A DNA stretch of 64,000 nucleotides, taken from a virus (Duplodnaviria > Caudoviricetes). Of the stretch, positions 1 to 63,542 are shown piece after piece. The stretch spans positions 31,901-95,900 of IMG/VR virus record IMGVR_UViG_3300010163_003659; one strand, written 5' to 3'. The first letter of the stretch is position 1; the number at the start of each line of letters is the position of its first letter. Made by a program: the position numbers and the translations under genes. The notes under the pieces are model-generated. The model was given only the letters and a program-made list of their open reading frames with translations, had not been told where the DNA came from and made no database searches.

Positions 1-14
1 ACTAGGAGGTTTGT

Positions 15-710: not shown

Positions 711-722
711 GGAAATATCGAG

Positions 723-1058: not shown

Positions 1059-1109
1059 TTTAAGAGATATGTAACTCTTTTACATAACTGGAATACGGAA
1101 GGAAGAAGT

Positions 1110-1328: not shown

Positions 1329-1340
1329 GAGGCAACGACT

Positions 1341-1981: not shown

Positions 1982-2447
1982 TTGTGAAAAGTGCAGAAAT
2001 GGACACTTTTATGAAGGCGATAAATTACGTTGCAGGCTAAGGAAATGTCAACCAGATTATGAGGATATGCAGGAGGCGAGGCAAGCATTATGCAAAGCTT
2101 TCCCAAAGAGTTTTATAAACAAGAAAGATGAATTCATTGCTGAGGAAAGAAGTAATCAATATTTTATGCTGAGTGATTGTGAATATCCAGAAGATATAGA
2201 TTGCAAAGTATTGGAATGGTTATCGAGGGCTGCATGCAAAGGAGCTCCCTTTAATCAGGAGTGGAGAAATCGTAAATTCAGAAAATTTATGTTGGATGGA
2301 ATAAATAATTTTCTTGACACAAATTTTTCTGAGGAAGAGATGGGAGAAATATATACATATTTAGGGAATGCATGCAACCATACGAAAACCATGCAATTTG
2401 TAGAAAGCGGTTTTGATATAAAAGTTTTGAAGGAGGTGGCAACATAA
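1968..2447 (+). CDS. Phage hypothetical protein
   Basis: AGGAGG RBS; overlapping gene string. Confidence 0.65.
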   Translation: MERIDCEKCRNGHFYEGDKLRCRLRKCQPDYEDMQEARQALCKAFPKSFINKKDEFIAEERSNQYFMLSDCEYPEDIDCKVLEWLSRAACKGAPFNQEWRNRKFRKFMLDGINNFLDTNFSEEEMGEIYTYLGNACNHTKTMQFVESGFDIKVLKEVAT

Positions 2448-2752
2448 TGAACATTAATGATTTGATTTGTGAACTTTTAGAAGAGCCTGTGACACAAGAG
2501 GATAATGGCATAGAGTTCACAAGCAGAAGCGTAGAGCTGATACATGAAATTGCAGAAATGTGTAATGAGATTCCCATTGTGCAGAAGACAAAGGAGCAGG
2601 CGGAAGACTACGCAGAGGGGTTATCTGCAGAGCAGGTATATATGGATATGCTAGTTAAGATTGTGGAGGCACCGACGGCAATTCACATGAAAATGTCGGC
2701 AAAAATGCTGATACCGATTATAAGTCGGAAGCTGAAAGAGAGGGGATTGTGA
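2447..2752 (+). CDS. Phage hypothetical protein
   Basis: GGAGGT RBS; TAATG coupling. Confidence 0.65.
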   Translation: MNINDLICELLEEPVTQEDNGIEFTSRSVELIHEIAEMCNEIPIVQKTKEQAEDYAEGLSAEQVYMDMLVKIVEAPTAIHMKMSAKMLIPIISRKLKERGL

Positions 2753-3306
2753 TGGATAGAAAAAAGACAACGGAGTTCCTTGGGAACTTGCTCATTTCAG
2801 ATAGGTTTGGAGGAATAGGAAAATATTGGGCGAAGGAAGTCAGCATAGATCCATGGGCGGCCAAAGGCAAACCTAAAAGGGTTGACTATATGCAATTCGT
2901 TCCAGCTGGGCAGTGCTCTGTGTCAGATATAGAAAAAGGTATATTTGTCTGCTATGAAATCAAGAGCTGCAAGCAGGATGTTTACAGTGGAAACGGATTA
3001 AATTTTCTCGGAGAGAAGAACTACATAGTGACAACAATGGAATGTTATAAAGACTTGTTGCAGGATTTTCGAGATGGAACATTTGCAAGACATCTGCACG
3101 AAGTAGCTCCAGAATCATCTTCGCATTTTGGAATAATGGTAGCAATACCTTTTATGTCTGAAATGACGGATGAATTTGAAAATCCAACAGAAATTGATTG
3201 TGAGAATGGTCGATGGAAGCTGGCCGTTATACAGCAATGTGTCCCAGGACTAAGAAAAAAACCAATGACAGAGCTATTGTTTTGTATGCTGAGAAGTGGG
3301 CATTAA
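2749..3306 (+). CDS. Putative PD-(D/E)xK nuclease-fold protein (MmcB-like)
   Basis: E..RVDY..CYEIKSC motif spacing. Confidence 0.5.
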   Translation: MMDRKKTTEFLGNLLISDRFGGIGKYWAKEVSIDPWAAKGKPKRVDYMQFVPAGQCSVSDIEKGIFVCYEIKSCKQDVYSGNGLNFLGEKNYIVTTMECYKDLLQDFRDGTFARHLHEVAPESSSHFGIMVAIPFMSEMTDEFENPTEIDCENGRWKLAVIQQCVPGLRKKPMTELLFCMLRSGH

Positions 3307-4063
3307 AGAATGGGAGGAATGTAGAGTGATAAGACCTATTTTGTTTAATACAGACATGGTTAAATCAGTATTGGACGGAAGAAAAACAGTAACTAGACGA
3401 TGTGTAAAAGCAAAGAGCAAAAATGCTTGTGGGTTCTATGTTACATTCAGAAAATCAGACAATGCGTTTATGGGTGTATATGATTATGACGAAAATGAAA
3501 TGCAGTATGATAATCAACAGACACAGCCTGCATATCCGGGAGATATTCTATGGGTAAGAGAAACATGGAGAGTAGGGGCATGGGACATTCAAAATCAAAT
3601 GATAGCATTTGATTATAAAGATGGAACCTGCGGAGAACTTACATACATACATGACAGGGAATTGCTTGAAAGACTGGTAAACCAATCAAGAGAGAATGCC
3701 CAAAAAGCCGGGTGCAAATACAATGGTGCTGATTTTATCTGGAAAAAAGGGAAATCTCCTTGCCGGTGGCATCCTTCTATCCACATGTCAAAAGAAGCGG
3801 CTCGTATCTGGCTCAAGGTTACGGATGTGAGAGTGGAGCGGTTACAGGATATAAGTGGTATGGATGTATTAAAAGAGGGAGTTAATAGCCATGTGCATCC
3901 AGAAGCGGACTATTTTGACGTGAATCAACGAGAAATGTTTCAAAGTCTATGGAATTCCACAATAGATAAAAAGCAGATTGATACATACGGATGGGAAGCT
4001 AATCCATGGGTGTGGGTGATAGAATTTGAACGGTGCGAAAAACCAGAGGGGTGGTGCGTATGA
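3296..4063 (+). CDS. ASCH/PUA-like phage protein (true start may be ~3326)
   Basis: RPILFNxxMV..GRKTVTRR, GDILWVRETW, WHPSIHM, VERLQDIS, W.ANPWVWVIEF motifs. Confidence 0.7.
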   Translation: MGIKEWEECRVIRPILFNTDMVKSVLDGRKTVTRRCVKAKSKNACGFYVTFRKSDNAFMGVYDYDENEMQYDNQQTQPAYPGDILWVRETWRVGAWDIQNQMIAFDYKDGTCGELTYIHDRELLERLVNQSRENAQKAGCKYNGADFIWKKGKSPCRWHPSIHMSKEAARIWLKVTDVRVERLQDISGMDVLKEGVNSHVHPEADYFDVNQREMFQSLWNSTIDKKQIDTYGWEANPWVWVIEFERCEKPEGWCV

Positions 4064-4263
4064 TTTGCCTGAATTGTGGAAGAAAACTAAGAAGTGCAGC
4101 AAGCAGGGAGGCGGGGTATGGACCTGTCTGCTACAGAAAAATGTTCGGTACCAGCCTGCGAAGCAGTCGCAAAGACAGTGTTTCAGTGACGGCTGATACC
4201 CCCTACTACAATATCCCTGGTCAAATGACGATGGATGAATACCTGCAGAGAGATTCAGAATGA
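4060..4263 (+). CDS. Zn-finger protein (DUF6011-like)
   Basis: CxxCGRKL...S...GYGPVC. Confidence 0.65.
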   Translation: MICLNCGRKLRSAASREAGYGPVCYRKMFGTSLRSSRKDSVSVTADTPYYNIPGQMTMDEYLQRDSE

Positions 4264-4363
4264 ATGGAAAAAGGAGAGTGCTTTCGCAACCCTCCCAACA
4301 GACAGTTATATTATATCATAATTCGATATGAATTAGAAATAAATTTCAAGGAGGTGCGAAAGC

Positions 4364-4954
4364 ATGGATAGCCAGACAACAGACAATAAGACTTTAGTGG
4401 TTCTGACACATGAACAGCTAAAGGATATTTATGAGAATGCGGCTGCTATTGGAGCGAAAGAGGCTCTGAAAATGTTCGAGCAGGAACGGAAGAAAGAGCA
4501 GGGGAAAAGAGCGGATCGGCGGCTGAGGAATACCAAGCTGCTGCTTCGTAATTATCATATGCTGAAGGAACACGCAGAAAATTCAGTTTTTGGAAGAACT
4601 CAGATGGAGGAATCCGCAATAGATATTCTGGAATCAATGATGTCAATGTACGACAATGAGGTAATTATCGAAAGCATAAAGCGGAGCGCCACCAGAACTG
4701 CAGTTATTGTTTCCCATATAGAAACAATGTTTGGGCTGTATGAGGCGTATTGTGGCAAGGCTCCAAACCGGGAAATTGAAATGAGGCGGTACGAGGTTGT
4801 ATGGGATATGTATATGGCGGATAATACCTTATCGGCAAAGGAGATTGCAGATAAGCAGAACATATCTACTAGAAATGTATATGAGGACATCAAAGTTGCG
4901 ACAGAAAGATTATCAGCCCTTATTTTTGGGGTGGATGGATTGAAAGTTCATTAA
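4364..4954 (+). CDS. Putative late-gene transcriptional activator with C-terminal HTH
   Basis: RLRNTKLLLRNY; C-terminal sigma-region-4-like HTH; lies before packaging module. Confidence 0.6.
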   Translation: MDSQTTDNKTLVVLTHEQLKDIYENAAAIGAKEALKMFEQERKKEQGKRADRRLRNTKLLLRNYHMLKEHAENSVFGRTQMEESAIDILESMMSMYDNEVIIESIKRSATRTAVIVSHIETMFGLYEAYCGKAPNREIEMRRYEVVWDMYMADNTLSAKEIADKQNISTRNVYEDIKVATERLSALIFGVDGLKVH

Positions 4955-5039
4955 ATCCGCCATCTGCAAAAATTCTTCCTTGATTTTTCAATATAAAAGT
5001 GAGAAAATTGTACTCGTAAAATTCTGAATCGAACATCGG

Positions 5040-5071
5040 AGGAAGTCTGAGGCTATCGGACTTCCTTTTTT
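5040..5071 (+). terminator. Intrinsic terminator-like hairpin
   Basis: GGAAGTCTGA..TCGGACTTCC followed by T-run. Confidence 0.5.
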
Positions 5072-5151
5072 CGTGCAGTTTTTCCGAGAAAGGAGAGAAT
5101 CAGACACAGGAAAGCATGAAGCTCCTCCAATATAAAAAATGGAGGAAAAGC

Positions 5152-6537
5152 ATGGATTATACTTTGATTGTGCTGTTGACCTATGCAGTAACAATGTTTG
5201 GGGTAACAGTATTTATGACGAAAAAAGAGAACAATATCGAGAAATTCTGTGTTGGAAACAGGAATGCCGGCTGGATGGTGTCGGCATTGAGCATAGCTGC
5301 CACATGGATATGGGCGCCAGCTCTGTTCACATCAACTGAGAATGCCTACACAAAGGGTTTTGCAGGGCTCTTTTGGTTTCTGGTACCGAACGTACTGTGT
5401 CTGATATTGTTCATTCCCTTTGCAAAGAAGATAAGGGAAGAAATGCCGGAGGGAATTACATTGTCCGGCTATATGTATGGGAAATATCATTCCAAAGCTG
5501 TGAAAAACGTATATCTGTTCCAACTCGGCGCATTGTCGGCATTATCAACGGGAGTGCAGCTGTTGGCGGGCAGCAAGATATTAAGTATGCTTACCGGGAT
5601 ACCGTTCGCAGCTATGACAATTATTATGGCTGCGATTGCATTTTCATACTCACAGTTCTCCGGGATAAAAGCATCAATACTGACAGATGCGCTCCAGATG
5701 GTATTCATGTTGGCCGCCAGCATCGGTTTTGTTGCTTTTGGTGTAAAGAATGGTGGAGGGTTGGAAACACTGGTTACGGGTTTAGGAGGAGCCGCAGGGG
5801 ATGCCGGATCATTATTCTCAAAGAGAGGATGGGAAATCTTTTTAGGATTCGGACTTCCAACAACGATAGGACTTATCTCAGGACCGTTTGGAGACCAGTG
5901 CTTTTGGCAGAGGGCATTTTGTGTTAGAAAAGACAGAATAGGTAGGGCTTTCTTTGTGGGAGCGCTGCTGTTTGGGATTGTGCCTTTGTCAATGGGTGTG
6001 CTTGGCTTTATCGGTTCTGGCATGGGATATGTCGCAGCGGATACCGGAATAATCAATTTTGAATTGATAAGCACACTATTCCCGGCATGGGCGGTCATCC
6101 CGTTCCTGTTTATGATTGTATCGGGGCTGCTGTCGACGATAGATAGCAACTTGTGTGCAATATCATCCCTCACAACAGACATTTTCAAGGAAAAGACACT
6201 CGGAAAAACAAAGTTCGCTATGATTTTACTGTTGGCTGTTGGAATTACCGTAGCCAACATACCAGGATTGACAGTAACGCACCTGTTCCTGATGTACGGA
6301 ACATTAAGGGCTGCTACCCTGCTCCCGACGATATTTACCCTTAAAGGAATAGAATTGAAACCGAGGGGAATTGTTGCAGGAATTATATCTGCTTTGATTA
6401 TCGGCTTGCCGATATTCGGATATGGAAATATACAGGGAATTGCGATTTATAAGACCGCAGGCAGTCTTTTGACAGTTATTCTTTCTGGAGCGGTGGCTCT
6501 GGCAGTAAGCAGAAAGAGAGGTGTACGGAATGGGTGA
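5152..6537 (+). CDS. Sodium:solute symporter (SSS) family transporter
   Basis: ~13 hydrophobic helices; ALSIAATWIWAPALF, GIKASILTDALQ, DQCFWQRAF, GLLSTIDS motifs. Confidence 0.85.
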   Translation: MDYTLIVLLTYAVTMFGVTVFMTKKENNIEKFCVGNRNAGWMVSALSIAATWIWAPALFTSTENAYTKGFAGLFWFLVPNVLCLILFIPFAKKIREEMPEGITLSGYMYGKYHSKAVKNVYLFQLGALSALSTGVQLLAGSKILSMLTGIPFAAMTIIMAAIAFSYSQFSGIKASILTDALQMVFMLAASIGFVAFGVKNGGGLETLVTGLGGAAGDAGSLFSKRGWEIFLGFGLPTTIGLISGPFGDQCFWQRAFCVRKDRIGRAFFVGALLFGIVPLSMGVLGFIGSGMGYVAADTGIINFELISTLFPAWAVIPFLFMIVSGLLSTIDSNLCAISSLTTDIFKEKTLGKTKFAMILLLAVGITVANIPGLTVTHLFLMYGTLRAATLLPTIFTLKGIELKPRGIVAGIISALIIGLPIFGYGNIQGIAIYKTAGSLLTVILSGAVALAVSRKRGVRNG

Positions 6538-7315
6538 TGTACTTGGCAGAAAGCAGAGGATACAAAACTCTGATTGGATAGATGCATTTGGGAAAATAGA
6601 ACAGCTGGTGTCGAAGAAGGAACTGGATCAGCTGGTCGAAAAGACAGTAAAAGAGATTAAGAAGAAAACCAAAGGGAAGAAGGCCGCCTATGCATGGAGC
6701 GGTGGAAAGGATTCCCTGGTACTCGGTGAAATCTGCCAGCGGGCAGGGATAACCCCTTGCGTCCTCGTAATCAGTAATTTGGAGTATAAAGCATTTATAG
6801 AATGGGTAGAGGGGCATAAGCCTCCGGAATTGTCCATAATCAACACAGGGCAGGATATAAAATGGTTGGCCGATCATCTGCAGATGCTTTTCCCACAGGA
6901 CAGCAAATTTGCGGCAAGGTGGTTTCAGATTGTACAGCATAGAGGTCAAACAAAATATTACAAGGAGCAGGAACTGGATATGCTGCTGCTTGGAAGGCGG
7001 AGAGCTGACGGAAATTATGTTGGCAAGGGAGATAACATTTACACCAACGGACAGGGGGTAACAAGATACAGTCCCATGTCTGATTGGACGCATGAGCAGG
7101 TGTTGGCATATATCCATTATTATAATCTGGAAATGCCGCCGATTTATGACTGGAAAAACGGTTATCTCTGCGGAACGCATCCATGGCCGGCAAGGCAGTG
7201 GACCGGGAGCGTGGAAAATGCCTGGGCAGAAATTTACGAGATTGACAGCTCCATTGTAACCGAGGCGGCAGAGCATATCCAGAGTGCAAAAGACTTTCTG
7301 GAAAGCCTTAAATAA
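6530..7315 (+). CDS. PAPS-reductase-family (PP-loop) protein
   Basis: AWSGGKDS, LLGRRRADG, PMSDWT...YI. Confidence 0.85.
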   Translation: MGDVLGRKQRIQNSDWIDAFGKIEQLVSKKELDQLVEKTVKEIKKKTKGKKAAYAWSGGKDSLVLGEICQRAGITPCVLVISNLEYKAFIEWVEGHKPPELSIINTGQDIKWLADHLQMLFPQDSKFAARWFQIVQHRGQTKYYKEQELDMLLLGRRRADGNYVGKGDNIYTNGQGVTRYSPMSDWTHEQVLAYIHYYNLEMPPIYDWKNGYLCGTHPWPARQWTGSVENAWAEIYEIDSSIVTEAAEHIQSAKDFLESLK

Positions 7316-7438
7316 ATACGCTGACATTTGACAGCACTTGCAAGCGGTTGTTTGCAGGCTGTCTTTTTGCTATTTGCAGATAGCACATATATATCATACA
7401 TCAATCGTTCCTCCAATAAATCACAGGAGGATACGAAC

Positions 7439-8065
7439 ATGGAAATAACCACAATGAAACTGGCTGACCTTGTTAAGCCGGAGAAGAATGTCAGAATCCA
7501 TACCGAACAGCAGCTGAAGGAGTTTAGGCGCAGCGTGAAGATGTTCGGACAGATCCGCCCTATTGTTGTTGACGAGAACAACATCATTCTGGCGGGAAAT
7601 GGTCTGTACGATACACTCATTGCTATGGGGAAAGAAACAGCAGATGTATATCGGTATGACAATCTCACTGAAAATCAGAAAAAGAAGCTGATGATAGCAG
7701 ACAACAAGATTTTCAGCCTGGGTATTGAGAACTTGGAAACACTGAACAGCTTTTTGGAGGACCTGCAGGGAGATTTGGATATCCCTGGCTTTGATGAAGA
7801 AATCTTAAAGCAGATGGTCTCCGAGGCTGAGGATATTACAGATAAGCTCTCCGAATATGGAACGCTTGATGATGAAGAGATTCAGAGTATCAAGGAAAAT
7901 GCTGAAAGGAAAGAGCAGCAGATACAAAAGATTGAATCAGGACAGGAGCAGACGCCACAATCGGCGCTTCCGTCACAGCAGGATCCAGAGGGAGGTAATG
8001 AAGAAACCACCGAAGTAAGAAAATTCGTTACCTGTCCTAATTGCGGAGAAAAGATATGGCTATAA
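7439..8065 (+). CDS. ParB/Srx N-terminal domain protein with C-terminal Zn ribbon
   Basis: FGQIRPIVVDENNIILAGNG..IADNK; TCPNCG; AGGAGG RBS. Confidence 0.8.
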   Translation: MEITTMKLADLVKPEKNVRIHTEQQLKEFRRSVKMFGQIRPIVVDENNIILAGNGLYDTLIAMGKETADVYRYDNLTENQKKKLMIADNKIFSLGIENLETLNSFLEDLQGDLDIPGFDEEILKQMVSEAEDITDKLSEYGTLDDEEIQSIKENAERKEQQIQKIESGQEQTPQSALPSQQDPEGGNEETTEVRKFVTCPNCGEKIWL

Positions 8066-9204
8066 AGAGATGTCCGGCCAGCATTGATGTTGTAGAGGCA
8101 GCAAAAATCAGAATCCGAAATGTATTTCGGAACGGTCTGCCGGTATATATGTCCTTTAGCGGTGGAAAAGACAGTTTGTGCCTGTCGCAGCTCGTAATGA
8201 ATCTGATACAGACAGGAGAAATCAACCCGGCACAGCTGACTGTGCAATTTATTGATGAAGAAGCCATATTCCCATGCATGGATGAAAAGGTAAGGGAATG
8301 GCGAAAAAAATTTATGCTTGTTGGAGCAAAGTTTGAGTGGTTCTGCCTCGAGGTGAAACACTACAACTGCTTTAATGAACTGTCCAACGACGAAACATTC
8401 ATTTGTTGGGACAGATATAAAAAGGATGTTTGGGTAAGACAGCCGCCATCATTCGCAATCCAAAATCACCCGCTGTTGAAACCCCGGACAGATGCGTATC
8501 AAGATTTTCTTCCAAGGGTATGTTCTGATGGGGTAACGATAACTGGGATAAGGACGGCGGAATCGGTTCAAAGATTACAGAATGTGGCAACCATGCTGAA
8601 AGCAGGGAAGACCGCAACGAACAAGCACCAGGTATTTCCTCTGTATGACTGGACCAATAACGATGTGTGGTTGTACCTTCTTCGAGAAAAGGTAGACATA
8701 CCAGAGATTTATCTATTCTTGTGGCAGTCCGGCACAAGAAAGGGGCAGCTTAGGGTATCGCAGTTCTTTTCTATTGATACCGCCAAAAGCCTTGTGAAAA
8801 TGAATGAGTATTATCCTGACCTTATGGAGAGGATAGTTCGCCGGGAGCCTAACGCATATCTCGCCGCTTTATATTGGGATAGTGAAATGTTTGGAAGAAG
8901 CACGACAGCCAGAAAGCAGAATGAGAAAGGGAAAGCAGAGAAAGATTATAAAGCCGCCCTTTTGGAGTTGTTTTCTGATATGGATGGTAATTTCCAAACA
9001 AAACACAAGAGATATGTGGCCGAACGGTATAGGAATTTCTTTATGAGCGTTTCTGCCATTGCAGACAATAAGGACTGCAAAGCTATTTATGAAGGGCTCA
9101 TTTCCGGTGATCCAAAGCTGCGGTCGTTCCGGGCATTGTATCAGCGGATATATGGTAAATATATCACAGAAGCCAAAAAGAAGGAGGGAATGCGAAATGG
9201 ATAG
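8056..9204 (+). CDS. PAPS-reductase-family protein (IbrA-like)
   Basis: SFSGGKDS, FIDEE, GIRTAESVQR, PLYDWTNNDVW, LRVSQFF. Confidence 0.85.
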   Translation: MAIKRCPASIDVVEAAKIRIRNVFRNGLPVYMSFSGGKDSLCLSQLVMNLIQTGEINPAQLTVQFIDEEAIFPCMDEKVREWRKKFMLVGAKFEWFCLEVKHYNCFNELSNDETFICWDRYKKDVWVRQPPSFAIQNHPLLKPRTDAYQDFLPRVCSDGVTITGIRTAESVQRLQNVATMLKAGKTATNKHQVFPLYDWTNNDVWLYLLREKVDIPEIYLFLWQSGTRKGQLRVSQFFSIDTAKSLVKMNEYYPDLMERIVRREPNAYLAALYWDSEMFGRSTTARKQNEKGKAEKDYKAALLELFSDMDGNFQTKHKRYVAERYRNFFMSVSAIADNKDCKAIYEGLISGDPKLRSFRALYQRIYGKYITEAKKKEGMRNG

Positions 9205-9718
9205 TAAGATGATAAGCCCTCTTGATACTCTGCAATGGGTAGACAGGGGCATGGTAAAACCAAATGATTATAACCCGAACAAAGTATCGAAACAAAATCT
9301 GGAACTGCTGAAGCAGTCCATTTTAACCAACGGATGGACATTGCCGATTGTGGTGAGGCCGGATTTTACGATTATTGACGGATTCCACCGTTGGACCGTT
9401 GCAGGAGAAGAGCCTCTGGTTTCCATGTTGGAAGGGAAGGTTCCGGTTGTTATTGTAGAACATAAAGACAAAGCAGGAAATATTTACGGTACTGTAACCC
9501 ATAACAGGGCAAGAGGCACACATTTGCTAGAGCCTATGAAAGCAATCGTTAAGGAATTGATGAGCGAAGGTAAGACGGTGGAGGAAATCGGAAAGCAGCT
9601 CGGCATGAGACCGGAAGAAATCTTCCGTCTTTCTGAGTTTTCAAAAGAGGACTTCCTGAAAATGATGATTAAGCCGAATGAGGGCTATTCAAAAGCGGAG
9701 TTCATAACGAAGATTTAA
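9197..9718 (+). CDS. ParB-like nuclease-domain protein (IbrB-like)
   Basis: PNDYNPN, GWTLPIVV, IIDGFHR, HNRARGTH. Confidence 0.85.
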   Translation: MDSKMISPLDTLQWVDRGMVKPNDYNPNKVSKQNLELLKQSILTNGWTLPIVVRPDFTIIDGFHRWTVAGEEPLVSMLEGKVPVVIVEHKDKAGNIYGTVTHNRARGTHLLEPMKAIVKELMSEGKTVEEIGKQLGMRPEEIFRLSEFSKEDFLKMMIKPNEGYSKAEFITKI

Positions 9719-9820
9719 TGATAAATCAATAAATATGCGTGAGAGCCACACACCGGGGAGCGTATGCTCTCCTTTTTGCGTTCCCACGATTGCAAAAACG
9801 AATAGAAGAGAGGTGGTGAT

Positions 9821-10651
9821 ATGCCGAGGGCGCCGAGCGAAAAAATGATTGAAGCTGAAAAGCTGTTTAATGATGGAATGGCAATGGTGGAAATCGCAAA
9901 GAAACTGGGAGTTTCTGATGGTACTGTCCGTAGCTGGAAGAACAGATACGGATGGGCTGACAAGTCAAAAAAAAACAAACGCAACGTTGCAAAAAAAGAC
10001 GGTAAGAAAACTGCAACGTTGCAAAAGAAAAAGAAGGGCGGGCAGCTGGGAAATCAAAATTCTAAGGGAGCATCTAAAGGCAAGGGTAACCCAAAGCCAG
10101 TACCGCCACCCGATAGAACAAAACATGGTGGATATGTTCCTGTGTTCATGGATGCCCTCGATGAAGATGAGCAGGAACTCGTTGCAACGATTCCAGAAGA
10201 TACAGAACGGCAGCTCATGGAGCAAATACAGCTTTTTTCCATTCGGGAGCGCAGAATATTAAAAGCAATCAATAAATACCGGGAGCAAAAGGGAGACGTT
10301 GCGGTTGCTGATGTTACCAGATTTGAGGATAAGAGAATCTTCAAGGATAAGGAGGAAGAGGCAGAATACAATAGGCGCCAGAAGAAAAAAGTTGATAATG
10401 AAGAGATTCTTCCGGGTAAGTCCTACAGCATACAGACGCATACATCAAATAAGGATATGATAATAGCGAGGCTGGAACAGGAGCTTTCGACTGTTCAAAG
10501 CAAAAAGACAAAGGCTATTGAAGCATTGTCGAAATATCGCTTAGAAAAAGCAAAGTTGGAAAGTGAAAGTGCTGGAAATGATGCTGTTGACGATTGGATT
10601 GCAGCGGTTCTTGAGGAAGATGAGGGAGAGGATGTGAGTGGTGATGAATAA
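9821..10651 (+). CDS. terS: Terminase small subunit (N-terminal HTH)
   Basis: EIAKKLGVSDGTVRSWKNR HTH, GGQLGNQN, KHGGY; directly upstream of terL. Confidence 0.85.
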   Translation: MPRAPSEKMIEAEKLFNDGMAMVEIAKKLGVSDGTVRSWKNRYGWADKSKKNKRNVAKKDGKKTATLQKKKKGGQLGNQNSKGASKGKGNPKPVPPPDRTKHGGYVPVFMDALDEDEQELVATIPEDTERQLMEQIQLFSIRERRILKAINKYREQKGDVAVADVTRFEDKRIFKDKEEEAEYNRRQKKKVDNEEILPGKSYSIQTHTSNKDMIIARLEQELSTVQSKKTKAIEALSKYRLEKAKLESESAGNDAVDDWIAAVLEEDEGEDVSGDE

Positions 10652-55665: not shown

Positions 55666-55872
55666 ATGGATAAGAAATGGTGGAAAGCAGCAGGGGTAAG
55701 GGCAGTAAAGACGGTGGCAGAGACAGCGGTAGCCTTAATCCCTGCAGCGGCAACAATAACGGCGGTTGACTGGAAAACAGTCATTGGGACAGCGGCACTG
55801 GCCGGGGTGACATCCCTGCTTATGTCGGTTAAAGGGCTGCCGGAGCTGGAACTAACGGAAACAAAAAATTAA
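55666..55872 (+). CDS. Holin (r1t-like)
   Basis: WWKAAGVRAVKTVAETA..VDW..SLL.S..GLPE. Confidence 0.85.
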   Translation: MDKKWWKAAGVRAVKTVAETAVALIPAAATITAVDWKTVIGTAALAGVTSLLMSVKGLPELELTETKN

Positions 55873-55893
55873 GAAAGAGAGGAACAACAGAAT

Positions 55894-56352
55894 ATGAAAA
55901 AGTATATTGGAACAAAGATGATTGAAGCAAGGGAAATGAACAGAGGGGATTATAATAAATACCGTGGCTGGACTATCCCGGAAAATGAAAATCCGGAGGA
56001 TGAGGGGTATTTAGTGAAATATTCTGACGGGTATGAGAGCTGGTCACCAAAGAAGCAGTTCGAGGAAGCATATAAGGACTGCATGGGCATGACTTTTGGC
56101 ATTGCATTGGAGCTTCTGAAAAATGGATGCAAAGTAGCGCGTGAGGGATGGAATAGAAAAGGGATGTTTTTATATCATGTTCCGGCAGCGTCTTATGCCC
56201 CGTGTACACTGATTGGGAAAGAATGCGCTACAGATGGTGGGAAGGTGCCGTATGGTGCATATATTGCCATGAAAACAGCACAGGGCAATGTTGTGCCGTG
56301 GCTGGCAAGCCAGACAGATATGCTGGCTGAGGACTGGGTTCTGGTTGGGTAA
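55894..56352 (+). CDS. DUF2829/Tad2-family protein with extra N-terminal domain
   Basis: MTFGIALELLKNG.KVAREGWN.KGMF ... PWLASQTDMLAEDW. Confidence 0.82.
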   Translation: MKKYIGTKMIEAREMNRGDYNKYRGWTIPENENPEDEGYLVKYSDGYESWSPKKQFEEAYKDCMGMTFGIALELLKNGCKVAREGWNRKGMFLYHVPAASYAPCTLIGKECATDGGKVPYGAYIAMKTAQGNVVPWLASQTDMLAEDWVLVG

Positions 56353-56433
56353 GGCTGGCAGACATTTGAAATATTAAAAAAGCATGGGCTGGTACTGCAG
56401 GTGCCAGCTTTTTTGAAAGAAACAGGAGGAAAT

Positions 56434-57003
56434 ATGCAAAAAATAACAAAGGTAACAGTCCACGCTGGCCACAATAAGCAAGGTAGGATTGCGTGCGGGG
56501 CATCTGACTACATTGACGAATCCACAGAGGCACGGATTATCTGCAGGAAGGTAATCAGGCTGCTGAAAAAACACAAGATTACAGCTTATAACTGTACGGT
56601 CAACAATGGGACATGCCAGAATGATGTTTTGAAGAAAATATGCAAAAAATGCAATGCAAAGGAGCGGCAGTTGGATATCTCTATCCATTTCAATGCCTGC
56701 AGCCATTCCAAAGCGGACGGGCGGACAAAAGGCGTGGAAGTTCTCTGCAGGACAACAGATGGTGTCCGTGGTGATGTTGCCAGACGGATATGCAGCCAGA
56801 TTAGTATGATTGGGTTCGCAAACAGGGGTGTAAAGACCGAAAGTGATTTATATTTTCTAAACCGTACAAACAGGCCTGCCATCCTGGTAGAGGTTTGCTT
56901 CGTGGACGACCAAGACGATGCTAGACTATATAAGCAGAACAAGGACGCAGTAGCACAGGCCATTGTAAAAGCTGTACTGAATTATAACAAAATCTACAGA
57001 TGA
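56434..57003 (+). CDS. Endolysin, N-acetylmuramoyl-L-alanine amidase (Amidase_3)
   Basis: HAGH..E, ISIHFNA, NRGVK, PAILVEVCFVD. Confidence 0.92.
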   Translation: MQKITKVTVHAGHNKQGRIACGASDYIDESTEARIICRKVIRLLKKHKITAYNCTVNNGTCQNDVLKKICKKCNAKERQLDISIHFNACSHSKADGRTKGVEVLCRTTDGVRGDVARRICSQISMIGFANRGVKTESDLYFLNRTNRPAILVEVCFVDDQDDARLYKQNKDAVAQAIVKAVLNYNKIYR

Positions 57004-57046: not shown

Positions 57047-57091
57047 GAGTAGCCCAGATTGCCATATAGCAGTCTGGGCTATTATTTTTTT
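57047..57091. terminator. Probable bidirectional terminator between endolysin and CRISPR array
   Basis: TAGCCCAGATTGC..GCAGTCTGGGCTA hairpin, T-run on right, A-rich on left. Confidence 0.7.
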
Positions 57092-57092
57092 A

Positions 57093-57856
57093 GACGGGCT
57101 GACGTCATTACTACCATTTCTACTAAAATGTGCGTAGTAAAGGAAAAAGCATATAAGATGTGTGTCAATGCTCTTAGCCGAGCTACTACCATTTCTACTA
57201 CCGAAGCAATCTCCTTGAAGAGTATTTGGTTGAATGGTGTCAATGCCCTTAAACGGGCTAATACCATTTCTACGAAGTGAGCAAGCTATGGAGAGAATAT
57301 TCAGGTTGTGTGTCAATGCCATTAAACGGGCTGACGTCATTTCTACAACGACCACCATTCAACCCCGACCCGAGAATACGTGTGTCAATGTCCTTAAGCG
57401 GGCTAACGTCATTTCTACTCATATCAAATTTAGGTTGCTCGCAACTCTTAATGTGTCAGTGCCCTTAAGCGGGCTGACGTCATTTCTACAGAGTGTCCTA
57501 TTGAAGAAGTTTCAATTACAGGATTTGTGTCAATGCCCTTAAACGGGCAAATACCATTTCTACGAAAAGAATGCAAATATACAGAAAAACTGGATGAATT
57601 GTGTCAATGTCCTTAAACGGGCTAATCCCATTTCTACGATGAATGGATTTGACTTTGGAGTAAAAGACTACAGTGTGTCAATGCCCTTAAACAGGCTGAT
57701 GTCATTTCTACAGTGCGATGCTGGTGATCAGTGTCTGTAGCGTGATGTGTCAATGCCCTTAACCGGGCTTATGTCATTTCTACCAGTTTTTAAGTGTAGA
57801 TGAGAATATTTGGGAAGAAATGTGTCAATGCCCTTAAGCGGGCTGATTTTTCTTAC
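57093..57856 (-). CRISPR. Orphan CRISPR array: 11 repeats (37 bp, end copies degenerate), 10 spacers of 34-38 bp
   Basis: Plus-strand consensus GTGTCAATGCCCTTAAACGGGCTRAYRYCATTTCTAC at 57162, 57237, 57310, 57382, 57453, 57527, 57601, 57675, 57747, 57822, partial at 57093; minus strand ends ATTGACAC. Confidence 0.95.
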
Positions 57857-57861
57857 AAACT

Positions 57862-58194
57862 CTATAGCATTATTTTTTCTAGCTGCTCCAGTTTCTCCAA
57901 TACTATATCACGGATAAAGTCAGCATCTGTTTTATGCAAATTTAATACCTGTAATCTTTCCTTGGTTCCTTTGGGGAATTCCACATTTATAGTGTAAGCA
58001 CCTGTTTCCTGCTTCGCTTTATTTAATACATCTCGGATATATCTTTCTGCTTCCAGACATGTTCTAAACTTCTTTTCAGTCCCCGTAATTATCCAATGAT
58101 TATCATGAAGGTATAAATTTTGGCCCATGTACTCATATTCGTTGATATCTATAACGCCGGGATATTGTGTAGTGCTCTGTGTATGTTCCTGCAT
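57862..58194 (-). CDS. Small protein with C-terminal ribbon-helix-helix-like domain
   Basis: YTINVEFPKGTKERLQ...DFIRDIVLEKLE; AGAAAGG RBS. Confidence 0.65.
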   Translation of the reverse strand: MQEHTQSTTQYPGVIDINEYEYMGQNLYLHDNHWIITGTEKKFRTCLEAERYIRDVLNKAKQETGAYTINVEFPKGTKERLQVLNLHKTDADFIRDIVLEKLEQLEKIML

Positions 58195-58263: not shown

Positions 58264-58292
58264 AAAATAACATAACCATGATGGTATTTCAA
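58264..58292 (-). promoter_or_regulatory. Promoter TTGAAA-N17-TATTTT (TGn) with ACCATnATGGT palindrome in the spacer
   Basis: Exact spacing; palindrome at 58275-58285. Confidence 0.6.
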
Positions 58293-58531: not shown

Positions 58532-58789
58532 ATGATAAGAATTTTACTATCAACAAAGCTCGGTGAACTTAGGTGGACACAGGCAGATTTGGCAAGGGCT
58601 ACTGGTATCCGGCCAAATACAATCAATGAATTGTACCATGAGTTGATAGACAGAGTAAGTTTAGAGCAACTGGATCTCATTTGTGAGGCTCTGCATTGTG
58701 AACTGGATGAGTTGATTGTAAGGACGCCGGATGAGAGTCCTAAAGTCAAGCATTACAAAAATGGTTCTCTGATTTCATCAGACCAATAG
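58532..58789 (+). CDS. Cro/C1-type HTH regulator
   Basis: TQADLARATGIRPNTINELY..LDLICEALHC. Confidence 0.88.
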   Translation: MIRILLSTKLGELRWTQADLARATGIRPNTINELYHELIDRVSLEQLDLICEALHCELDELIVRTPDESPKVKHYKNGSLISSDQ

Positions 58790-59434
58790 TGCTGCAACAC
58801 TTGGTTAGGAGAGGGATGCTCATTATAATGTGGGCATCTCTTTGTTTTGTCTCAAAATTATAGTAGCAGGTTTTATAGTACATCATAAAATATTTCTACT
58901 AAACACAAAAATATTGAAAAGCAGTATAATAAGTTTTATAATCTCAATTATACAGTGTATGTGTAAAAACTGTGTTAATAAATGTGGGGTGTATCTGCAG
59001 GATGGTAGTGTGGTATGATGTATATGACGAAGATATTTCCATGATGTTTTCGTGATGTTAAAAGTTAGACAAAATGAAAGTAGACAGAGTATGTAGAAGT
59101 AAAATCGAATAAAAAGCAATATATTTTAAGTATGACAGTACACAAAAATACCATTACGAAATCGAGTTCGAATAGCGGACATTTGGGCTGGAAAGTGCGT
59201 AAAATAGGTGCTTTCCAGCCTTTCTCTTTGCTTCGTGAGATTGTTTTGAGATTCATATTTAAACACTTTCCATATATTCCACGAAAAGAGAATCGGATTG
59301 AAATTCCTGTCGAACTGTGATAGTATTTCATTGGGACTACCAAGATGGTAGGCGGTTAGCCCTCTCCGGAGGGACTGTGCCCCTCCGTTTACATAGAAAC
59401 CCGAAAGGGAATCTGGGAAAGGAGGGCTGAGCCA

Positions 59435-59533
59435 ATGGATATTTTAGGACTTATGGCAGTGTTAAGCTTTGGCTTGACCTGCTTTGGAATAGGATACTCT
59501 ATCGGTAAAGATAGTAACAAGACACAGAAATAG
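59435..59533 (+). CDS. Putative type I toxin (32 aa)
   Basis: MDILGLMAVLSFGLTCFGIGYSIGKDSNKTQK: TM helix plus basic tail; AAAGGAGG RBS; structured leader. Confidence 0.7.
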   Translation: MDILGLMAVLSFGLTCFGIGYSIGKDSNKTQK

Positions 59534-59680
59534 CCGTCCCGGTCCGACAAGGTTCTTACTCATGATTGGGTAAGAACCGGTGACGGCACAAACAAAAAAG
59601 AGTGCATTTCGTACTCTTTTTTGTTTGCTATGATATTTCTTATTTTTGGGTGTTTATGTTATAATTAATAAAAATAAGAC

Positions 59681-60773
59681 ATGGAGGTTTTGGTAATGGG
59701 GACAGGAAAAAATAAGAAAAAATATTCTGAGATAAATATGGGCGAAATATTGTTCGGGGACAGTGTGGCTGTCTTTGGGCATGTTGAAGATGACCGCCAT
59801 ATCACGCTTTTTATGAAATCCAAAGCGGTACAGGGAACCTGTCCTGTGTGTAGCGTTGTTTCTGACCAATACCACAGCACCTATCATAGAAATTTGCAGG
59901 CAGTCCCCATCCGGGGGAAAAATACCCGCCTTGACGTAATCGCTTATAAGTTCTATTGCAATAATCCAGAATGCAGCCAGAAAGTTTTTATGGAATCCCT
60001 CCCCTTCGCATCCCCATCGCAGACAAGGACGGACGAACTTACCTGCATTATTCTTGCGGTATCATTATTCATGAGCAATGAAGGAGCAAGCACTATCCTT
60101 AAGGAAATGGGAATCCATGTAAGCAACGACACGATTGGCTGTCTTTACAACAGGCTGTCTATTGAGGATGCCACGGATATTCAGGCTGTCGGCATTGACG
60201 ATGTCGCCATACGGAAGGGGCAGACATATGCCACCGCAATCTATGACCTTGCCGATCACCATATGGTAGCCCTGCTTGACGGCAGGGAGGCTGATACCCT
60301 GCGGGAATGGCTGAGAAACCATAAGAAGATAAAACTTGTCGCAAGAGACCGCGCCAGTGCATACGCGAACGCAATCAACGATGTACTGCCGGAATGTACC
60401 TAGGTGGCAGACCGCTTTCATCTGCTTCAGAACCTGATAGACAGGATGAAAGACATTTTCAGAGAGGAACTGCCGGAGAAGTTTTACATAAAGGACGGAA
60501 AACTGCTGGATGAAACACCGGATGTGGAGAAAAGGCTCAAGATCCCGCAAGATTCAGAAGCATTCCATGGTATAGCCTATGACAATTCGCCTCCCCTGGA
60601 TCATACAGGCTCTCCTGTCATGTTTGATGACACCACATACCACCCGGGCAGGGCAAGGAGCAAAAAGGAAGCGGAAAACAGGAAAAAAAACAGCAGAAAG
60701 TCATAGATATCCGGGCGGAATGGGACGCCTGTCCAGAAACAGCAGATATGAAAGCATTTGCACAGACTCATTC
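59681..60773 (+). pseudogene. ISL3 transposase, premature stop and truncated by IS3
   Basis: CPVC, GIDDVAIRKGQTY, RDRASAY, T*VADRFHL (TAG 60401); C-terminal KLIKRILYGR resumes after 62131. Confidence 0.88.
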
Positions 60774-60847
60774 TGATGTTGTATCATAATACTTGACACT
60801 TCCACTTCACGGATATATAAAAAAGAAGTGAAAATGGAGGTTGTAAA

Positions 60848-61180
60848 ATGGCACAGAAAAAAGTCTACGACAAAGAATTCAAAATTCAGGCCGTAAAGCT
60901 TGGAAGAGAGATTGGGTTTAGCAAAGCGGCAAAAGAACTGGGAGTCAATATTGATACGCTATATGGATGGAATAAGCGTGCAAAAGACGCCAGGCTGGGT
61001 CTGGGGCCGGGAACTCAGACACCAGATACAGCGATGAGCCTTACGGAAGAGGTACAGAAGCTTAGACAGCAGAACAGAGAACAGGCAAAGGAAATTGCCC
61101 GCTTAAAAGAGGAAAATGAGTTCTTAGCGGAAGCCAGCGCTTTTTTCGCAGCGAGCCGTCGGAAGTCAGCAAAAACCTGA
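60848..61180 (+). CDS. IS3 transposase OrfA
   Basis: YDKEFKIQAV HTH; LKEENEFL..ASAFFA. Confidence 0.9.
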   Translation: MAQKKVYDKEFKIQAVKLGREIGFSKAAKELGVNIDTLYGWNKRAKDARLGLGPGTQTPDTAMSLTEEVQKLRQQNREQAKEIARLKEENEFLAEASAFFAASRRKSAKT

Positions 61181-61182
61181 GG

Positions 61183-62088
61183 ATGAGGTTTATCGATATA
61201 AAGACGGATGGCGGCACTCTCAAGGGGAAAATTGCGTTTTATTGTGATGCGCTTGATGTGACAAGGCAGGGATTTTACTGGTATTTAAAACATCGGGATG
61301 ACCCGTGGAAATACGAGGGAATCGCTGAAAAAATGCGTGGTATCGTGGCAGAGGATGAATGTAATGATACTTACGGCCGCTGCCGGATGTATCAGGCGTT
61401 AAAGCTGAAATATCCGGACGAAGACATTCCCAGTGAAAGGACTGTTTACAGGATTATGGAAGAGATAGGGTTAAGCCACAGGCCAAACCGCAAACCAAAT
61501 GGAATTACAAAAGAGGACAGGAATGCCCGGAAATCAGAAGATCTTTTCAAGCGGGATTTCACGGCGCAAAGGCCGCTTGAAAAATGTGTGACGGACATCA
61601 CCGAAATTCCTGCCATGGATGGGAAACTCTATGTATCGGCAATCTTTGACTGCTATGATCTAGGGGTACTTGGACTTGCAATGGCAAATAATATGAAAGC
61701 TGGACTGTGTGTATCCACAATAGAAAATGCTGCGAAAGCATTCCCATCCATCAGCGGTGCAATTATCCACAGTGACCGTGGGAGTCAGTACACAAGCGCA
61801 TCCTATAGGGCGGAACTAAGCCGCTGCGGGATCGTGCAGAGTATGAACAGCGATGGCGGTAGATGCCATGACAATGCGCGCTGTGAGGCTATGTGGGCGA
61901 GGATGAAGGAGGAACTCTTGTATGGCAGATATAATACAAAGGAAATGGCAATCGAGGAACTTAAAACCCTAGTATGGAGATACTTTATTATCTATTGGAA
62001 CAATCGGAGGATATGCTCAGCCAATGGCGGTCTGCCTCCAATGCTTAAAAGGAAACAGTATTATGAATCACTGGAGCAGGCGGCTTAA
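61183..62088 (+). CDS. IS3 transposase OrfB (DDE)
   Basis: TDITE, HSDRGSQY, DNARCE..KEE. Confidence 0.92.
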   Translation: MRFIDIKTDGGTLKGKIAFYCDALDVTRQGFYWYLKHRDDPWKYEGIAEKMRGIVAEDECNDTYGRCRMYQALKLKYPDEDIPSERTVYRIMEEIGLSHRPNRKPNGITKEDRNARKSEDLFKRDFTAQRPLEKCVTDITEIPAMDGKLYVSAIFDCYDLGVLGLAMANNMKAGLCVSTIENAAKAFPSISGAIIHSDRGSQYTSASYRAELSRCGIVQSMNSDGGRCHDNARCEAMWARMKEELLYGRYNTKEMAIEELKTLVWRYFIIYWNNRRICSANGGLPPMLKRKQYYESLEQAA

Positions 62089-62441
62089 AGATTTCGTGAA
62101 GAAAAAGTGTAAAGGGATATTGACAATATCAAACTGATCAAACGTATTCTTTACGGACGCTCCGGTCTCGCAAACCTGTTCCGAAAATGTTACGCCGCAT
62201 TCAGTATAACACAGACCAATGTGCCTGTCCAATCACTAATCCCTGGTCTAGATAAGCGTATAAAAAAGTTAACAGAAAAAATCATGGTTCTTACCCAATC
62301 ATGAGTAAGAACCTCCGACAAACTGAGCGGCTGTTTCAGCAACTTATAAGTTGGGCTAACCGTCTATCGGTAGTCCTGTGGGGCACCTGTTACAGCAGGT
62401 GTCCTTCTTTATGTTCAATATACCATAATCTGTGCAGAGTT

Positions 62442-63542
62442 TCAAGTGCTTTCTTCTGGCGGCGGTGTCCGGCGGAACTGGTTCAGCCTGTCGGCCAGCT
62501 TCTGATCTTTATCCGGGTACAGATGGGAATAGGTGTCAAGGGTTGTTTTCACTGATTCATGTCCCAGACGGTCAGCTATCTCCAATGGGGTAAAGCCGAG
62601 TTCTATCAACATGCTTGCATGGCTGTGCCGCAGGTCATGCACCCGGATCGGCGTCAGCCCTGCCTTTTCGGATGCCCGCTTTATTTCCTTTTCCAGAGCA
62701 GATTTTGTAAAATAAAAGATTCGGTCTCCCTTCCCAATCCCATAGAGCTTTGATATATACTCATGGATATCATTATACAGAAAATCTGGAATGGAGATAC
62801 ACCGCTTTGCTTTGGGCGTCTTCGGTTCCAGAAATAGTTCCTCGCCTTTTACTTTTGCATAATTCTTATTGATATCCACCCGCTTAGAGGGAAGGATGTC
62901 TGCAGGGGTGAGCGCCAGCAGCTCCCCAGACCGCATCCCGGTATAAAACAGCATGTCAAAAGCCAGCTTTATAGATGATTTCTGGATAGCACCGGAAAAC
63001 TGTTCATATTGTTCCTGCGTCCAGATGTGCATTTCGTCTGCTTTGCTTTTCCCCATACTGCCGGCTGCCCTGCAGGGATTGGATGGGAGCTGGTAATGTG
63101 CCACGGCATAATTCATAAGGGCAGACAGCTGGTTATTGACGGTCTTAAGGTATGTCTGCGAGAATGGTTTCCCTGTTTCATCCCTGTATGAAATCAATTT
63201 ATTCTGCCACTTCCGGATTTTGATGGTATCAATATCGCACACTTTCAGCCTGCCGAAGTAGGGGAGCAGTTTGCCTTCGATGATAAAGCGCTTATTCTCC
63301 ATCGTGGTAGGCTTCAGACGGTGCCCCATGTCTTCCAGATAATTTTCTACGAGGGAAGAAAAGAGTATGTCGCTGGTATTCTTTTCCTGATCCAGAAACG
63401 ACCGTTCATACTCTTTAGCCTCCCGCTGTGTTTTGAATTCTCTTTTACAGGTATGTTTATTCTGCCCGGTCCAGTCCGTATAGTTAAAGGCAGCGTACCA
63501 CATGGTTTTTCCGTTTTTAAGAGTGTATTTATAGGCTGGCAT
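62442..63542 (-). CDS. int: Phage tyrosine integrase
   Basis: YTGMRSGE, HDLRHSHAS, RLGHES...TYSHLY; N-terminal arm-binding domain. Confidence 0.95.
   Translation of the reverse strand: MPAYKYTLKNGKTMWYAAFNYTDWTGQNKHTCKREFKTQREAKEYERSFLDQEKNTSDILFSSLVENYLEDMGHRLKPTTMENKRFIIEGKLLPYFGRLKVCDIDTIKIRKWQNKLISYRDETGKPFSQTYLKTVNNQLSALMNYAVAHYQLPSNPCRAAGSMGKSKADEMHIWTQEQYEQFSGAIQKSSIKLAFDMLFYTGMRSGELLALTPADILPSKRVDINKNYAKVKGEELFLEPKTPKAKRCISIPDFLYNDIHEYISKLYGIGKGDRIFYFTKSALEKEIKRASEKAGLTPIRVHDLRHSHASMLIELGFTPLEIADRLGHESVKTTLDTYSHLYPDKDQKLADRLNQFRRTPPPEEST

Follow-up and report, generated by a model that had tools for sequence, protein, structure and literature searches.

Introduction

Isolated CRISPR arrays, also called orphan arrays, were reportedly the subject of a study by Shmakov et al. 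in 2020. Both cas-less arrays on viral genomes and orphan arrays within prophages are already known (PMC11656645, PMC13142298). The cas-less mini-CRISPR arrays carried by viruses such as SPV1 and SPV2 serve conflicts between viruses (Medvedeva et al. 2019, PMC6858448; reviewed in PMC11656645), and according to the review the repeats of these mini-arrays are identical to those of the host (PMC11656645). As summarised in PMC13142298, isolated arrays lie away from cas genes, some of them inside prophages, and those of P. aeruginosa have near-identical leaders and repeats with spacer acquisition still ongoing. Additionally, RNA anti-CRISPRs (Racr) are solitary repeat units encoded by phages (PMC11656645), and type III-D systems with an associated reverse transcriptase (RT) are known from Clostridia (Toro et al. 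2019, PMC6753606).

This study examined a 64,000-nt stretch of phage DNA, hereafter the window, corresponding to positions 31,901 to 95,900 of the IMG/VR record IMGVR_UViG_3300010163_003659. The combined results describe a cas-less, leaderless array of a type III-D repeat family located in a temperate myovirus, where it occupies a conserved cargo slot, and this description is well supported. New in this work are the repeat family with its type III-D and RT partners, the conserved slot between lysis and XRE genes in Lachnospiraceae phages, and a leaderless, inverted copy of the array in which every repeat has diverged under visible constraint; a literature search of incomplete coverage returned no description of the repeat family, the lysis-XRE slot or a diverged leaderless copy.

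Structure of the array

A repeat-spacer array comprised of nine full 37-nt repeats, two degenerate end repeats and ten spacers was located at positions 57087-57858 of the window. A prior sequence-only reading had placed a CRISPR array at 57093-57856; the array was found at that site, and its limits are corrected here. The plus-strand unit of the repeat is GTGTCAATGCCCTTAAACGGGCTAATGTCATTTCTAC (37 nt), the start-to-start period is 71-75 nt, and all ten spacers are unique and 34-38 nt in length (in plus-strand coordinates, S1 57124-57161, S2 57199-57236, S3 57274-57309, S4 57347-57381, S5 57419-57452, S6 57490-57526, S7 57564-57600, S8 57638-57674, S9 57712-57746 and S10 57784-57821). The locus thus has the features of a CRISPR array, namely direct repeats of 23-50 nt at regular intervals with unique spacers of similar length. 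A core repeat pattern matched 10 times in the forward direction and 0 times in a reversed control. Tandem Repeats Finder reported nothing at the array, as expected because the spacers are unique; no relevant Rfam family was found in the 54-64 kb part of the window, and no tRNAs were found in the window.

With crRNA sense on the minus strand, the order of elements from the promoter side is R10-S10-R9-...-S1-R0, and all repeats below are read on that strand, with the lower coordinate marking the plus-strand start. The first repeat in the direction of transcription, R10 (57822-57858), is degenerate in its 5' half, corresponding to the last 11 plus-strand bases at the right end of the array, and retains an intact hairpin and ATTGACAC handle. 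R9 (57747-57783) has the canonical 4-bp hairpin, and the stem of R8 (57675-57711) reads GCCU/GGGC, with G-U pairing solely on the minus-strand RNA. R7 (57601-57637) carries a GCCC/GGAC stem with a C-A mismatch, and the canonical hairpin is lost in its predicted fold. The hairpin is retained in R6 (57527-57563) and in R5 (57453-57489), the latter having the handle variant ACTGACAC as the sole end-block change of the array. R4 (57382-57418) has the same GCCC/GGAC mismatch and a weak predicted fold (-3.8 kcal/mol), and R3 (57310-57346) has lost the loop-closing pair (GCCC/UGGC). R2 (57237-57273) is nearest to the consensus, lying 1 mismatch from a repeat of a cas-adjacent host array (L048), and R1 (57162-57198) has the compensated stem GCUC/GAGC. 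The trailer-end repeat R0 (57087-57123) stops after the loop, without the 3' stem half and handle; its first 12 plus-strand bases are missing, and it contains a 9-nt tandem duplication (GTAGAAATG GTAGTAATG).

Repeat family and associated cas genes

The window repeat was found to be a member of a large Lachnospiraceae family with the form GTAGAAATG-variable-GCCC-loop-GGGC-ATTGACAC. In the orientation opposite to the plus strand, the layout comprises GTAGAAATG, 6-7 variable nt, GCCC, a 5-6-nt loop, GGGC and ATTGACAC. The family was collected by scanning one genome per prokaryote species for both repeat end blocks, which yielded at least 120 loci, and among the matches listed nearly all multi-copy loci belonged to Lachnospiraceae. 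Because a locus entered the family only if one or more of its repeats had exact end blocks, some of the end conservation seen between arrays is inherent in the selection, while variation within arrays is unaffected by this requirement.

Elsewhere the repeat family was found beside cas genes. In three host loci (L110, L020 and L120), the arrays are followed on the crRNA-sense strand by genes for a CARF-HEPN Csm6, Cas1 and a reverse transcriptase, with matches to PF09670, PF22205, PF01867 and PF00078 above cut-offs; the reverse transcriptase of L020 is fused to an AEP primase-polymerase domain. In a further host genome (G003), the 12 kb upstream of the array encode Cas10-like, Cmr4-like, Csx10-like, Csx7-like and Csx19-like proteins, a TIGR03986 RAMP and a weak Cas6-like protein, the last at positions 4790-5755 of L145. 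The TIGR03986 RAMP (328 bits) is the sole protein of this locus above a curated cut-off, the other best matches falling below theirs (Csx10 76 bits, Csx19 26, Cas10/Cmr2 22 and Cas6 27), and the Csm1 (TIGR02578) and Cmr2 (TIGR02577) models gave no match above cut-off in five host genomes. The type III association that had been proposed from the sequence therefore agrees with the Csm6, Cas1, RT, Csx10/Csx19/RAMP-like and Cas6-like genes beside the repeat family in host genomes. The subtype was taken from the gene content of the G003 locus, and by these best matches the cognate system of the repeat family is predicted to be type III, III-D-like, with RT-linked adaptation.

Phage context and related contigs

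The source record is a 95.9-kb IMG/VR predicted provirus. The genes of its plus-strand late operon include those for portal, major head, tail sheath, tape measure, baseplate, holin and endolysin proteins. In the record as a whole, neither Cas1 nor a III-D RAMP was found, nor any homologue of the Cas6-like protein of G003, in agreement with the initial description of a cas-less array on a phage. The array is preceded by a plus-strand lysis cassette (55666-57003) of holin (55666-55872), Tad2-like (PF11195; 55894-56352) and Amidase_3 endolysin (56401-57003) genes. Beyond the array lies a plus-strand XRE/Cro-type HTH gene (58532-58789), which is found beyond the array in relatives as well (78% nucleotide identity in L136, 72% nucleotide identity in L135 and 41% amino acid identity in L083).

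This arrangement of lysis genes, array and XRE gene recurs with an array in four other contigs. L083, a Lachnoclostridium MAG contig, contains an amidase gene (62% amino acid identity), a leader, 10 identical repeats plus a degenerate last repeat, a Dam-type methylase ORF and the XRE gene. L136, an IMG/VR contig, has the holin (76%), the amidase (72% nucleotide identity), a broken methylase gene and the XRE gene, and its slot holds two mini-arrays of different repeat flavours, each with its own leader copy. L135 lies within a 66-kb IMG/VR record rated 100% complete, and L133 contains only the holin homologue of the phage module. A strict pattern search of IMG/VR for the array gave 0 loci and a looser pattern gave 9 loci; GenBank phages contained nothing related to the array or to the 24-kb right arm. 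The sheath protein had no close prophage relative in five host genomes (G001-G005), and a host search with the right-end DNA gave a best integrase match of 86% among 401 Lachnospiraceae genomes.

Two readings in which the array would owe its position to host DNA were considered. Cas1, Csm6 and RT homologues were absent from the examined stretches of the related phage contigs, which carry an array in the lysis-XRE slot, arguing against a chromosomal remnant of a cas locus, the outcome that had been named as refuting the initial interpretation. It is also very improbable that the array is host DNA included because the provirus limits were set too widely. In favour of this reading, the provirus status of the record is a prediction, and there are an IS pair and another integrase 2-5 kb to the right of the array; however, a family array sits between lysis genes and XRE in three IMG/VR contigs, one of them the 66-kb complete record, as well as in L083, and the flanks diverge in the manner of phage DNA, unlike the adjoining integrase. 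Compared with L136, the record is 72-78% identical across the lysis genes and XRE, whereas a small-toxin region reaches 89% and the integrase at the right 90%; the array therefore travels with a fast-diverging phage arm. The integrase at window positions 62442-63542 most likely begins a neighbouring element, because another integrase (82% identical), followed by a CI-like repressor, is encoded at record positions 8755-9843. An att-site search gave only weak short matches plus a 34-bp element shared with record positions 7263-7296, and the right end of the prophage is therefore placed only roughly, to the left of about window position 62380.

Orientation, leader and transcription

The arrays of L083 and L136 have a conserved leader ahead of them on the GTAGAAATG strand, and the last repeat on that strand is degenerate in its 3' half; R0 of the window array is degenerate in the same manner. 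The side of the leader in these relatives, together with the degeneracy of R0, therefore places the crRNA strand on the minus strand, running from 57858 down to 57087, and the direction of host cas genes agrees, so that the minus-strand orientation first proposed from the sequence is retained. A frequent variant of the family, G to A at plus-strand position 19, likewise keeps its pairing as G-U on the minus strand only.

The leader itself is missing from the window. Even with up to 3 mismatches allowed, the family leader motif did not occur anywhere in the window, and instead of a leader with a promoter, the 3' end of an open reading frame (orf110) lies upstream of R10. By inspection, nearly all of the 70 other arrays for which sufficient upstream sequence was available have a leader belonging to one of a small number of recurring types. 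A strict motif derived from L083 and L136 matches only those three arrays, and the loci with repeats nearest to those of the window (L025, L048, L066, L087, L122, L127 and L133) share a related leader of the form ...TTGGGGAA...ATAAACAGGG...CAGG, a subtype that was also missing from the window. In all relatives, the array and the amidase gene run in the same direction and the leader is present, whereas the window array is inverted.

The place of the leader in relatives is occupied by orf110 (57862-58194, minus strand, 110 aa), whose stop codon lies 3 nt before R10. A small domain that is frequent among gut phages (phrog_31631; RHH-like on visual inspection) makes up its C-terminal ~47 aa, and four relatives (P0001-P0004) have 72-96% identity. 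A conserved operon of an RHH gene plus an array was rejected as an explanation, as 65 IMG/VR loci with the orf110 domain had no array following it (0/65). Because none of these loci precedes an array, the fusion of orf110 and the array appears peculiar to the window phage, and it may be an accident of rearrangement and not a designed operon.

A promoter-like site (TTGAAA-17-TATTTT with an extended -10 TG; 58264-58292, minus strand) lies upstream of orf110 and, as a consensus match only, is a candidate promoter of an orf110-array transcript. At the other end, a 15-bp hairpin (57048-57083) can be read on both strands. On the plus strand it has a trailing T-run and forms the strong terminator of the late (lysis) operon, with the array beginning 4 nt past it. 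On the minus strand a weaker T-rich stretch follows, and the hairpin is the likely end of a minus-strand array transcript.

Pattern of repeat variation

All 11 repeats differ from one another, in line with the original observation that no two were identical. Among the nine full repeats, pairwise differences range from 1 to 10 positions (mean 5.2). Variation was found in 14 of 37 columns, with at least 17 allele changes, and plus-strand positions 1-6, 8-9, 13-15, 18, 21-22 and 29-37 were invariant. Of the at least 17 changes, only 1 falls within the 17 end positions, which comprise 9 nt of 5' block and 8 nt of handle (binomial P=4.4e-4). The hairpin is kept in 7/10 repeats; the compensatory double change noted in the repeat at 57162 (GCTC/GAGC) is real and preserves the hairpin, and uncompensated stem changes were found in the repeats at 57310, 57382 and 57601. 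The same distribution was obtained in a pooled set of 17 heterogeneous family arrays (85 repeats) in which no internal repeat was missed; per site, the minor-allele frequency is 0.167 for the variable segment and 0.127 for the loop, compared with 0.022 for the 5' block, 0.050 and 0.024 for the two stem halves and 0.035 for the handle. The early claim that variation is concentrated in the loop and the RAYRY segment is upheld, the changes avoiding the handle, the stem and the 5' end.

These data bear directly on whether the array is a dead relic that lost its leader by inversion and is now unused and decaying, a reading that we consider unlikely while giving it real weight. It would account for the missing leader, the lack of targets in the spacer searches made, the three weakened hairpins with two degenerate end repeats, and an orf110 arrangement met nowhere else. 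Neutral decay, however, should strike all 37 positions alike, and the position bias of the changes makes a neutral relic less likely; the stem change of R1 is compensated, the same positions are avoided in the 17 pooled arrays, and the spacer lengths and period are intact.

The origin of the differences was also considered. Transitions outnumber transversions among the changes (11:6, P=0.008 compared with a ratio of 1:2 for unrelated bases), and five pairs of informative sites violate the four-gamete condition. The repeats have thus exchanged sequence to some degree or mutated recurrently, and simple clonal drift alone does not account for all of their differences. An improbable alternative is that the different repeats did not arise by mutation in place and were instead brought together from arrays of different hosts or phages through recombination. 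Such a mosaic would fit the four-gamete violations, the alternation along the array of two variable-segment flavours (GTATTA-like and ACGTCA-like), and the two mini-arrays of different flavour within the single phage L136. Among the matches listed, however, no window repeat was identical to any repeat in the other arrays of the family (485 spacers' worth); the nearest collected repeats lie at a distance of 1-4, the nearest host repeat being 1 mismatch from R2 and the others 2-4. Transitions dominate, as point mutation would give, and clustering of like repeats along the array was not significant (P=0.08-0.17). The suggestion that the array had been assembled from different host arrays is accordingly not upheld by these collected repeats.

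Nor is heterogeneity special to phages, since cas-distal chromosomal arrays of the family are equally mixed; these adjoin genes for a penicillin-binding protein, HipA with anthranilate synthase, a TRAP transporter and a radical-SAM enzyme. Where Cas1, Csm6 or RT is encoded in the same 8-kb locus, the mean pairwise repeat difference is mostly 0-1.7, whereas in lysis-adjacent arrays it is 4.0-7.3, excepting the uniform L083 (Mann-Whitney P=0.005). Mixed arrays thus occur on chromosomes as well as in phages, suggesting that heterogeneity tracks distance from the adaptation genes.

Spacers and protospacer searches

The spacers are purine-rich on the plus strand, as originally noticed, with a mean purine fraction of 0.587 (P=0.025 against 0.5), which equals the value of 0.593 for the phage late operon on its sense strand. 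This bias fits, weakly, with crRNAs antisense to messages, as type III systems need. No protospacers were found in the record itself or in any collected family locus, there was no credible match in INPHARED (GenBank phages), and none was found in 401 sampled Lachnospiraceae genomes. When exact 20-mers of S3, S4, S6, S9 and S10 were compared with IMG/VR and those of S8 with metagenomes, the only matches were chance ones that did not extend; those of S6 (25/37) and S8 (23/37) were rejected on this ground. The strongest candidate, a 31/38 ungapped match of S2 to a TetR-family gene (G240), was at chance level for 401 genomes and was likewise rejected, the gene lying beside ABC transporters and not in a phage. 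In all, no spacer matched a related virus in these searches, which were of limited reach: they tolerated few mismatches and covered limited data, and the targets may lie in unsampled genomes.

An array without matched targets could instead act as an RNA decoy or anti-CRISPR, its multi-repeat transcript soaking up host Cas6 or filling type III complexes with harmless guides and thereby shielding the phage or prophage from host spacers. The absence of targets in the searches made is consistent with this idea, as is the location of the array in an anti-defence neighbourhood, where the second gene upstream is Tad2-like. Phages are known to encode repeat-derived RNAs with an inhibitory effect on CRISPR (Racr; PMC11656645), and conservation of just the Cas6 and handle determinants would fit binding as well as guiding. 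On the other hand, known Racrs are single repeat units, while the ten spacers of canonical length found here indicate that the array arose by real acquisition. L083 and L136 keep their leaders, the uniform repeats of L083 resemble those of an active immune array, and the strand composition of the spacers is as expected of transcript-derived guides. A decoy role for a ten-spacer array is possible but less economical, and we regard it as quite improbable.

Proposed function and implications

With moderate confidence, we favour the interpretation that the array is frozen and still under constraint, carried as cargo of a temperate Lachnospiraceae myovirus, as a borrowed-immunity element of an already known type, and dependent on host type III-D proteins. 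Since the phage encodes no cas genes, any activity of the array needs host proteins. Transcription of the array would probably start at the candidate promoter of orf110 and run to the bidirectional hairpin, with the array forming the tail of the message for this RHH-like gene. A host Cas6-type enzyme would then cut each repeat after the GCCC/GGGC hairpin and leave the 8-nt ATTGACAC tag. The resulting minus-strand crRNAs may load into the host type III complex and act on complementary transcripts of rival mobile elements, a mode of action both proposed and demonstrated for other arrays carried by viruses (PMC6858448; PMC11656645). The units of R3, R4 and R7 may be processed poorly, judging by the mismatch in the 4-bp stem of R4 and R7 and the lost closing pair of R3.

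The loss of leader-driven acquisition, by which repeats are renewed by copying, is the best explanation for the all-different repeats. Inversion of the array and loss of the leader would have ended spacer gain at the leader, and with no fresh repeat copies the repeats would have drifted by transition-biased point mutation with some exchange between them, while purifying selection retained the end blocks and stem as the positions for processing and loading. A bolder version seems doubtful to us, in which temperate Lachnospiraceae phages keep long-lived, hard-wired leaderless III-D guide cassettes, with repeats diverged at all dispensable positions and selection retaining the Cas6 and handle determinants. 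In this version divergence might itself be favoured as protection against repeat-to-repeat recombination, and in the window phage expression from the promoter of a regulator gene would arm the lysogen against rival elements.

Overall, this copy displays the outcome once leader-driven turnover stops, namely divergence solely where the family tolerates change. The divergence of the repeats provides a natural mutational map of the positions that matter to an unstudied Cas6/type III-D system, and the constraint hints that cas-distal arrays remain in use long after spacer acquisition ends. The array additionally suggests a possible route for prophages of gut Firmicutes to shape immunity against other phages. 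Were it only a relic, it would be an ordinary orphan array.

Comparison with described systems

The host loci of the repeat family share Csx10/Csx19-like proteins, RAMPs, Csm6, Cas1 and RT with the type III-D systems of Clostridia that are associated with an RT (Toro et al. 2019, PMC6753606), whereas the window has the array alone. Unlike in those systems, the RT of the host loci here is separate and AEP-fused, with no RT-Cas1 fusion.

As with Racr (PMC11656645), the locus would yield phage repeat RNA in a genome without cas genes, with Cas-binding determinants kept in the sequence; in contrast to the solitary units of Racr, it comprises a complete series of repeats and ten canonical-length spacers. 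Like the isolated arrays described in PMC13142298, it is cas-distal, and such arrays are thought to have been moved by a mobile element and may work in trans with a distant cas locus. It differs from the P. aeruginosa examples of that source in that its leader is gone and every repeat has diverged.

Further close counterparts are the viral mini-arrays (PMC6858448, PMC11656645), which likewise have host-type repeats in a viral genome without cas genes, depend on host Cas proteins and are presumed to exclude rivals. The mini-arrays have one or two spacers and repeats identical to those of the host, whereas the repeats of the window match neither each other nor, among the matches listed, any collected host array. 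The window array is also leaderless, and none of its spacers matched a related virus in the searches run. Compared with the mini-arrays of SPV1 and SPV2, the window array is type III-D-like and belongs to a bacterial temperate myovirus. Where the known cas-less viral arrays are described as tiny and host-identical, the present locus adds a ten-spacer array of a III-D family in a conserved lysis-XRE slot of a lineage of gut Lachnospiraceae phages.

Repeat folding and related arrays on viral contigs

The repeats of the cas-less array fall into two types by their variable segment. In the ACGUCA-type repeats, at window 57310-57346 and 57453-57489 (minus strand), the GUCA of the variable segment is predicted to be able to pair with UGAC of the 8-nt crRNA handle, giving an 8-bp hairpin with a 2-nt bulge; the extended hairpin of the second repeat has a predicted energy of -11.8 kcal/mol. 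No such handle pairing is possible in the GGUAUUA-type repeats.

Arrays of the same repeat family were also present on other viral contigs. One contig (L136) carries two tandem mini-arrays at 1415-2600, with 3+1 and 4+1 repeats, each with its own terminator and its own copy of a leader of roughly 130 nt, and these are followed by a Dam-type methylase gene interrupted by stop codons. In the array of a second contig (L226, IMGVR_UViG_3300035424_000238), the repeats are almost uniform and the leader is of host type. A spacer of this array (1048-1086) matches the contig itself exactly over 32 of 39 nt at 2182-2213, 1.1 kb downstream and on the opposite strand; judged from sequence, this match would represent either self-targeting or a spacer acquired from the phage's own transcript.

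Integrases and flanking mobile elements

A tyrosine integrase gene lies at each prophage end, at record 8755-9843 on the left and at window 62442-63542 on the right (both minus strand). Because the two share 82% DNA identity and the right one is 90% (nucleotide) and 96% (amino acid) identical to the integrase adjoining the L136 array module, the comparison suggests tandem integration of related elements at one site. Record 1-8700, left of the window, has genes for an ATPase (AAA_25), a relaxase (Mob_Pre) and a KilA-N protein; it resembles the terminal part of a mobilisable element that adjoins the prophage integrase.

To the right of the array, an ISL3-family element (window 59549-62314), whose two ends form a perfect inverted repeat of 29 bp (59549-59577 and 62285-62313), is interrupted by an IS3-family element with two ORFs (60848-62088); the ISL3 transposase is in two pieces (59681-60403 and 60404-60706). 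A small hydrophobic peptide of 31 aa, which on visual inspection resembles a type I toxin, is encoded at window 59436-59531, within a region (59160-59546) that has a counterpart at L136 4219-4594. The sequence upstream of the peptide gene is conserved at 76-94% identity in dozens of sampled Lachnospiraceae genomes, and a 34-bp piece recurs at record 7263-7296, 1.5 kb left of the record's other integrase, as well as close to host arrays at two loci (L037 and L120).

Tad2-like protein and host reverse transcriptase

The 152-aa product of window 55894-56352 (plus strand) has a Tad2-like domain at its C-terminal end (PF11195, 93 bits) and is a candidate sponge of immune signalling nucleotides. Its gene is placed between the holin and endolysin genes, two genes away from the type III-family array.

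At a host type III locus (L020), Cas1 is a protein separate from a 944-aa reverse transcriptase fusion (4172-7006, plus strand), in which the reverse transcriptase is joined to two further domains, one an AEP primase-polymerase ('TOTE' type, PF22548) and the other Mu Gam/Gp157-like.
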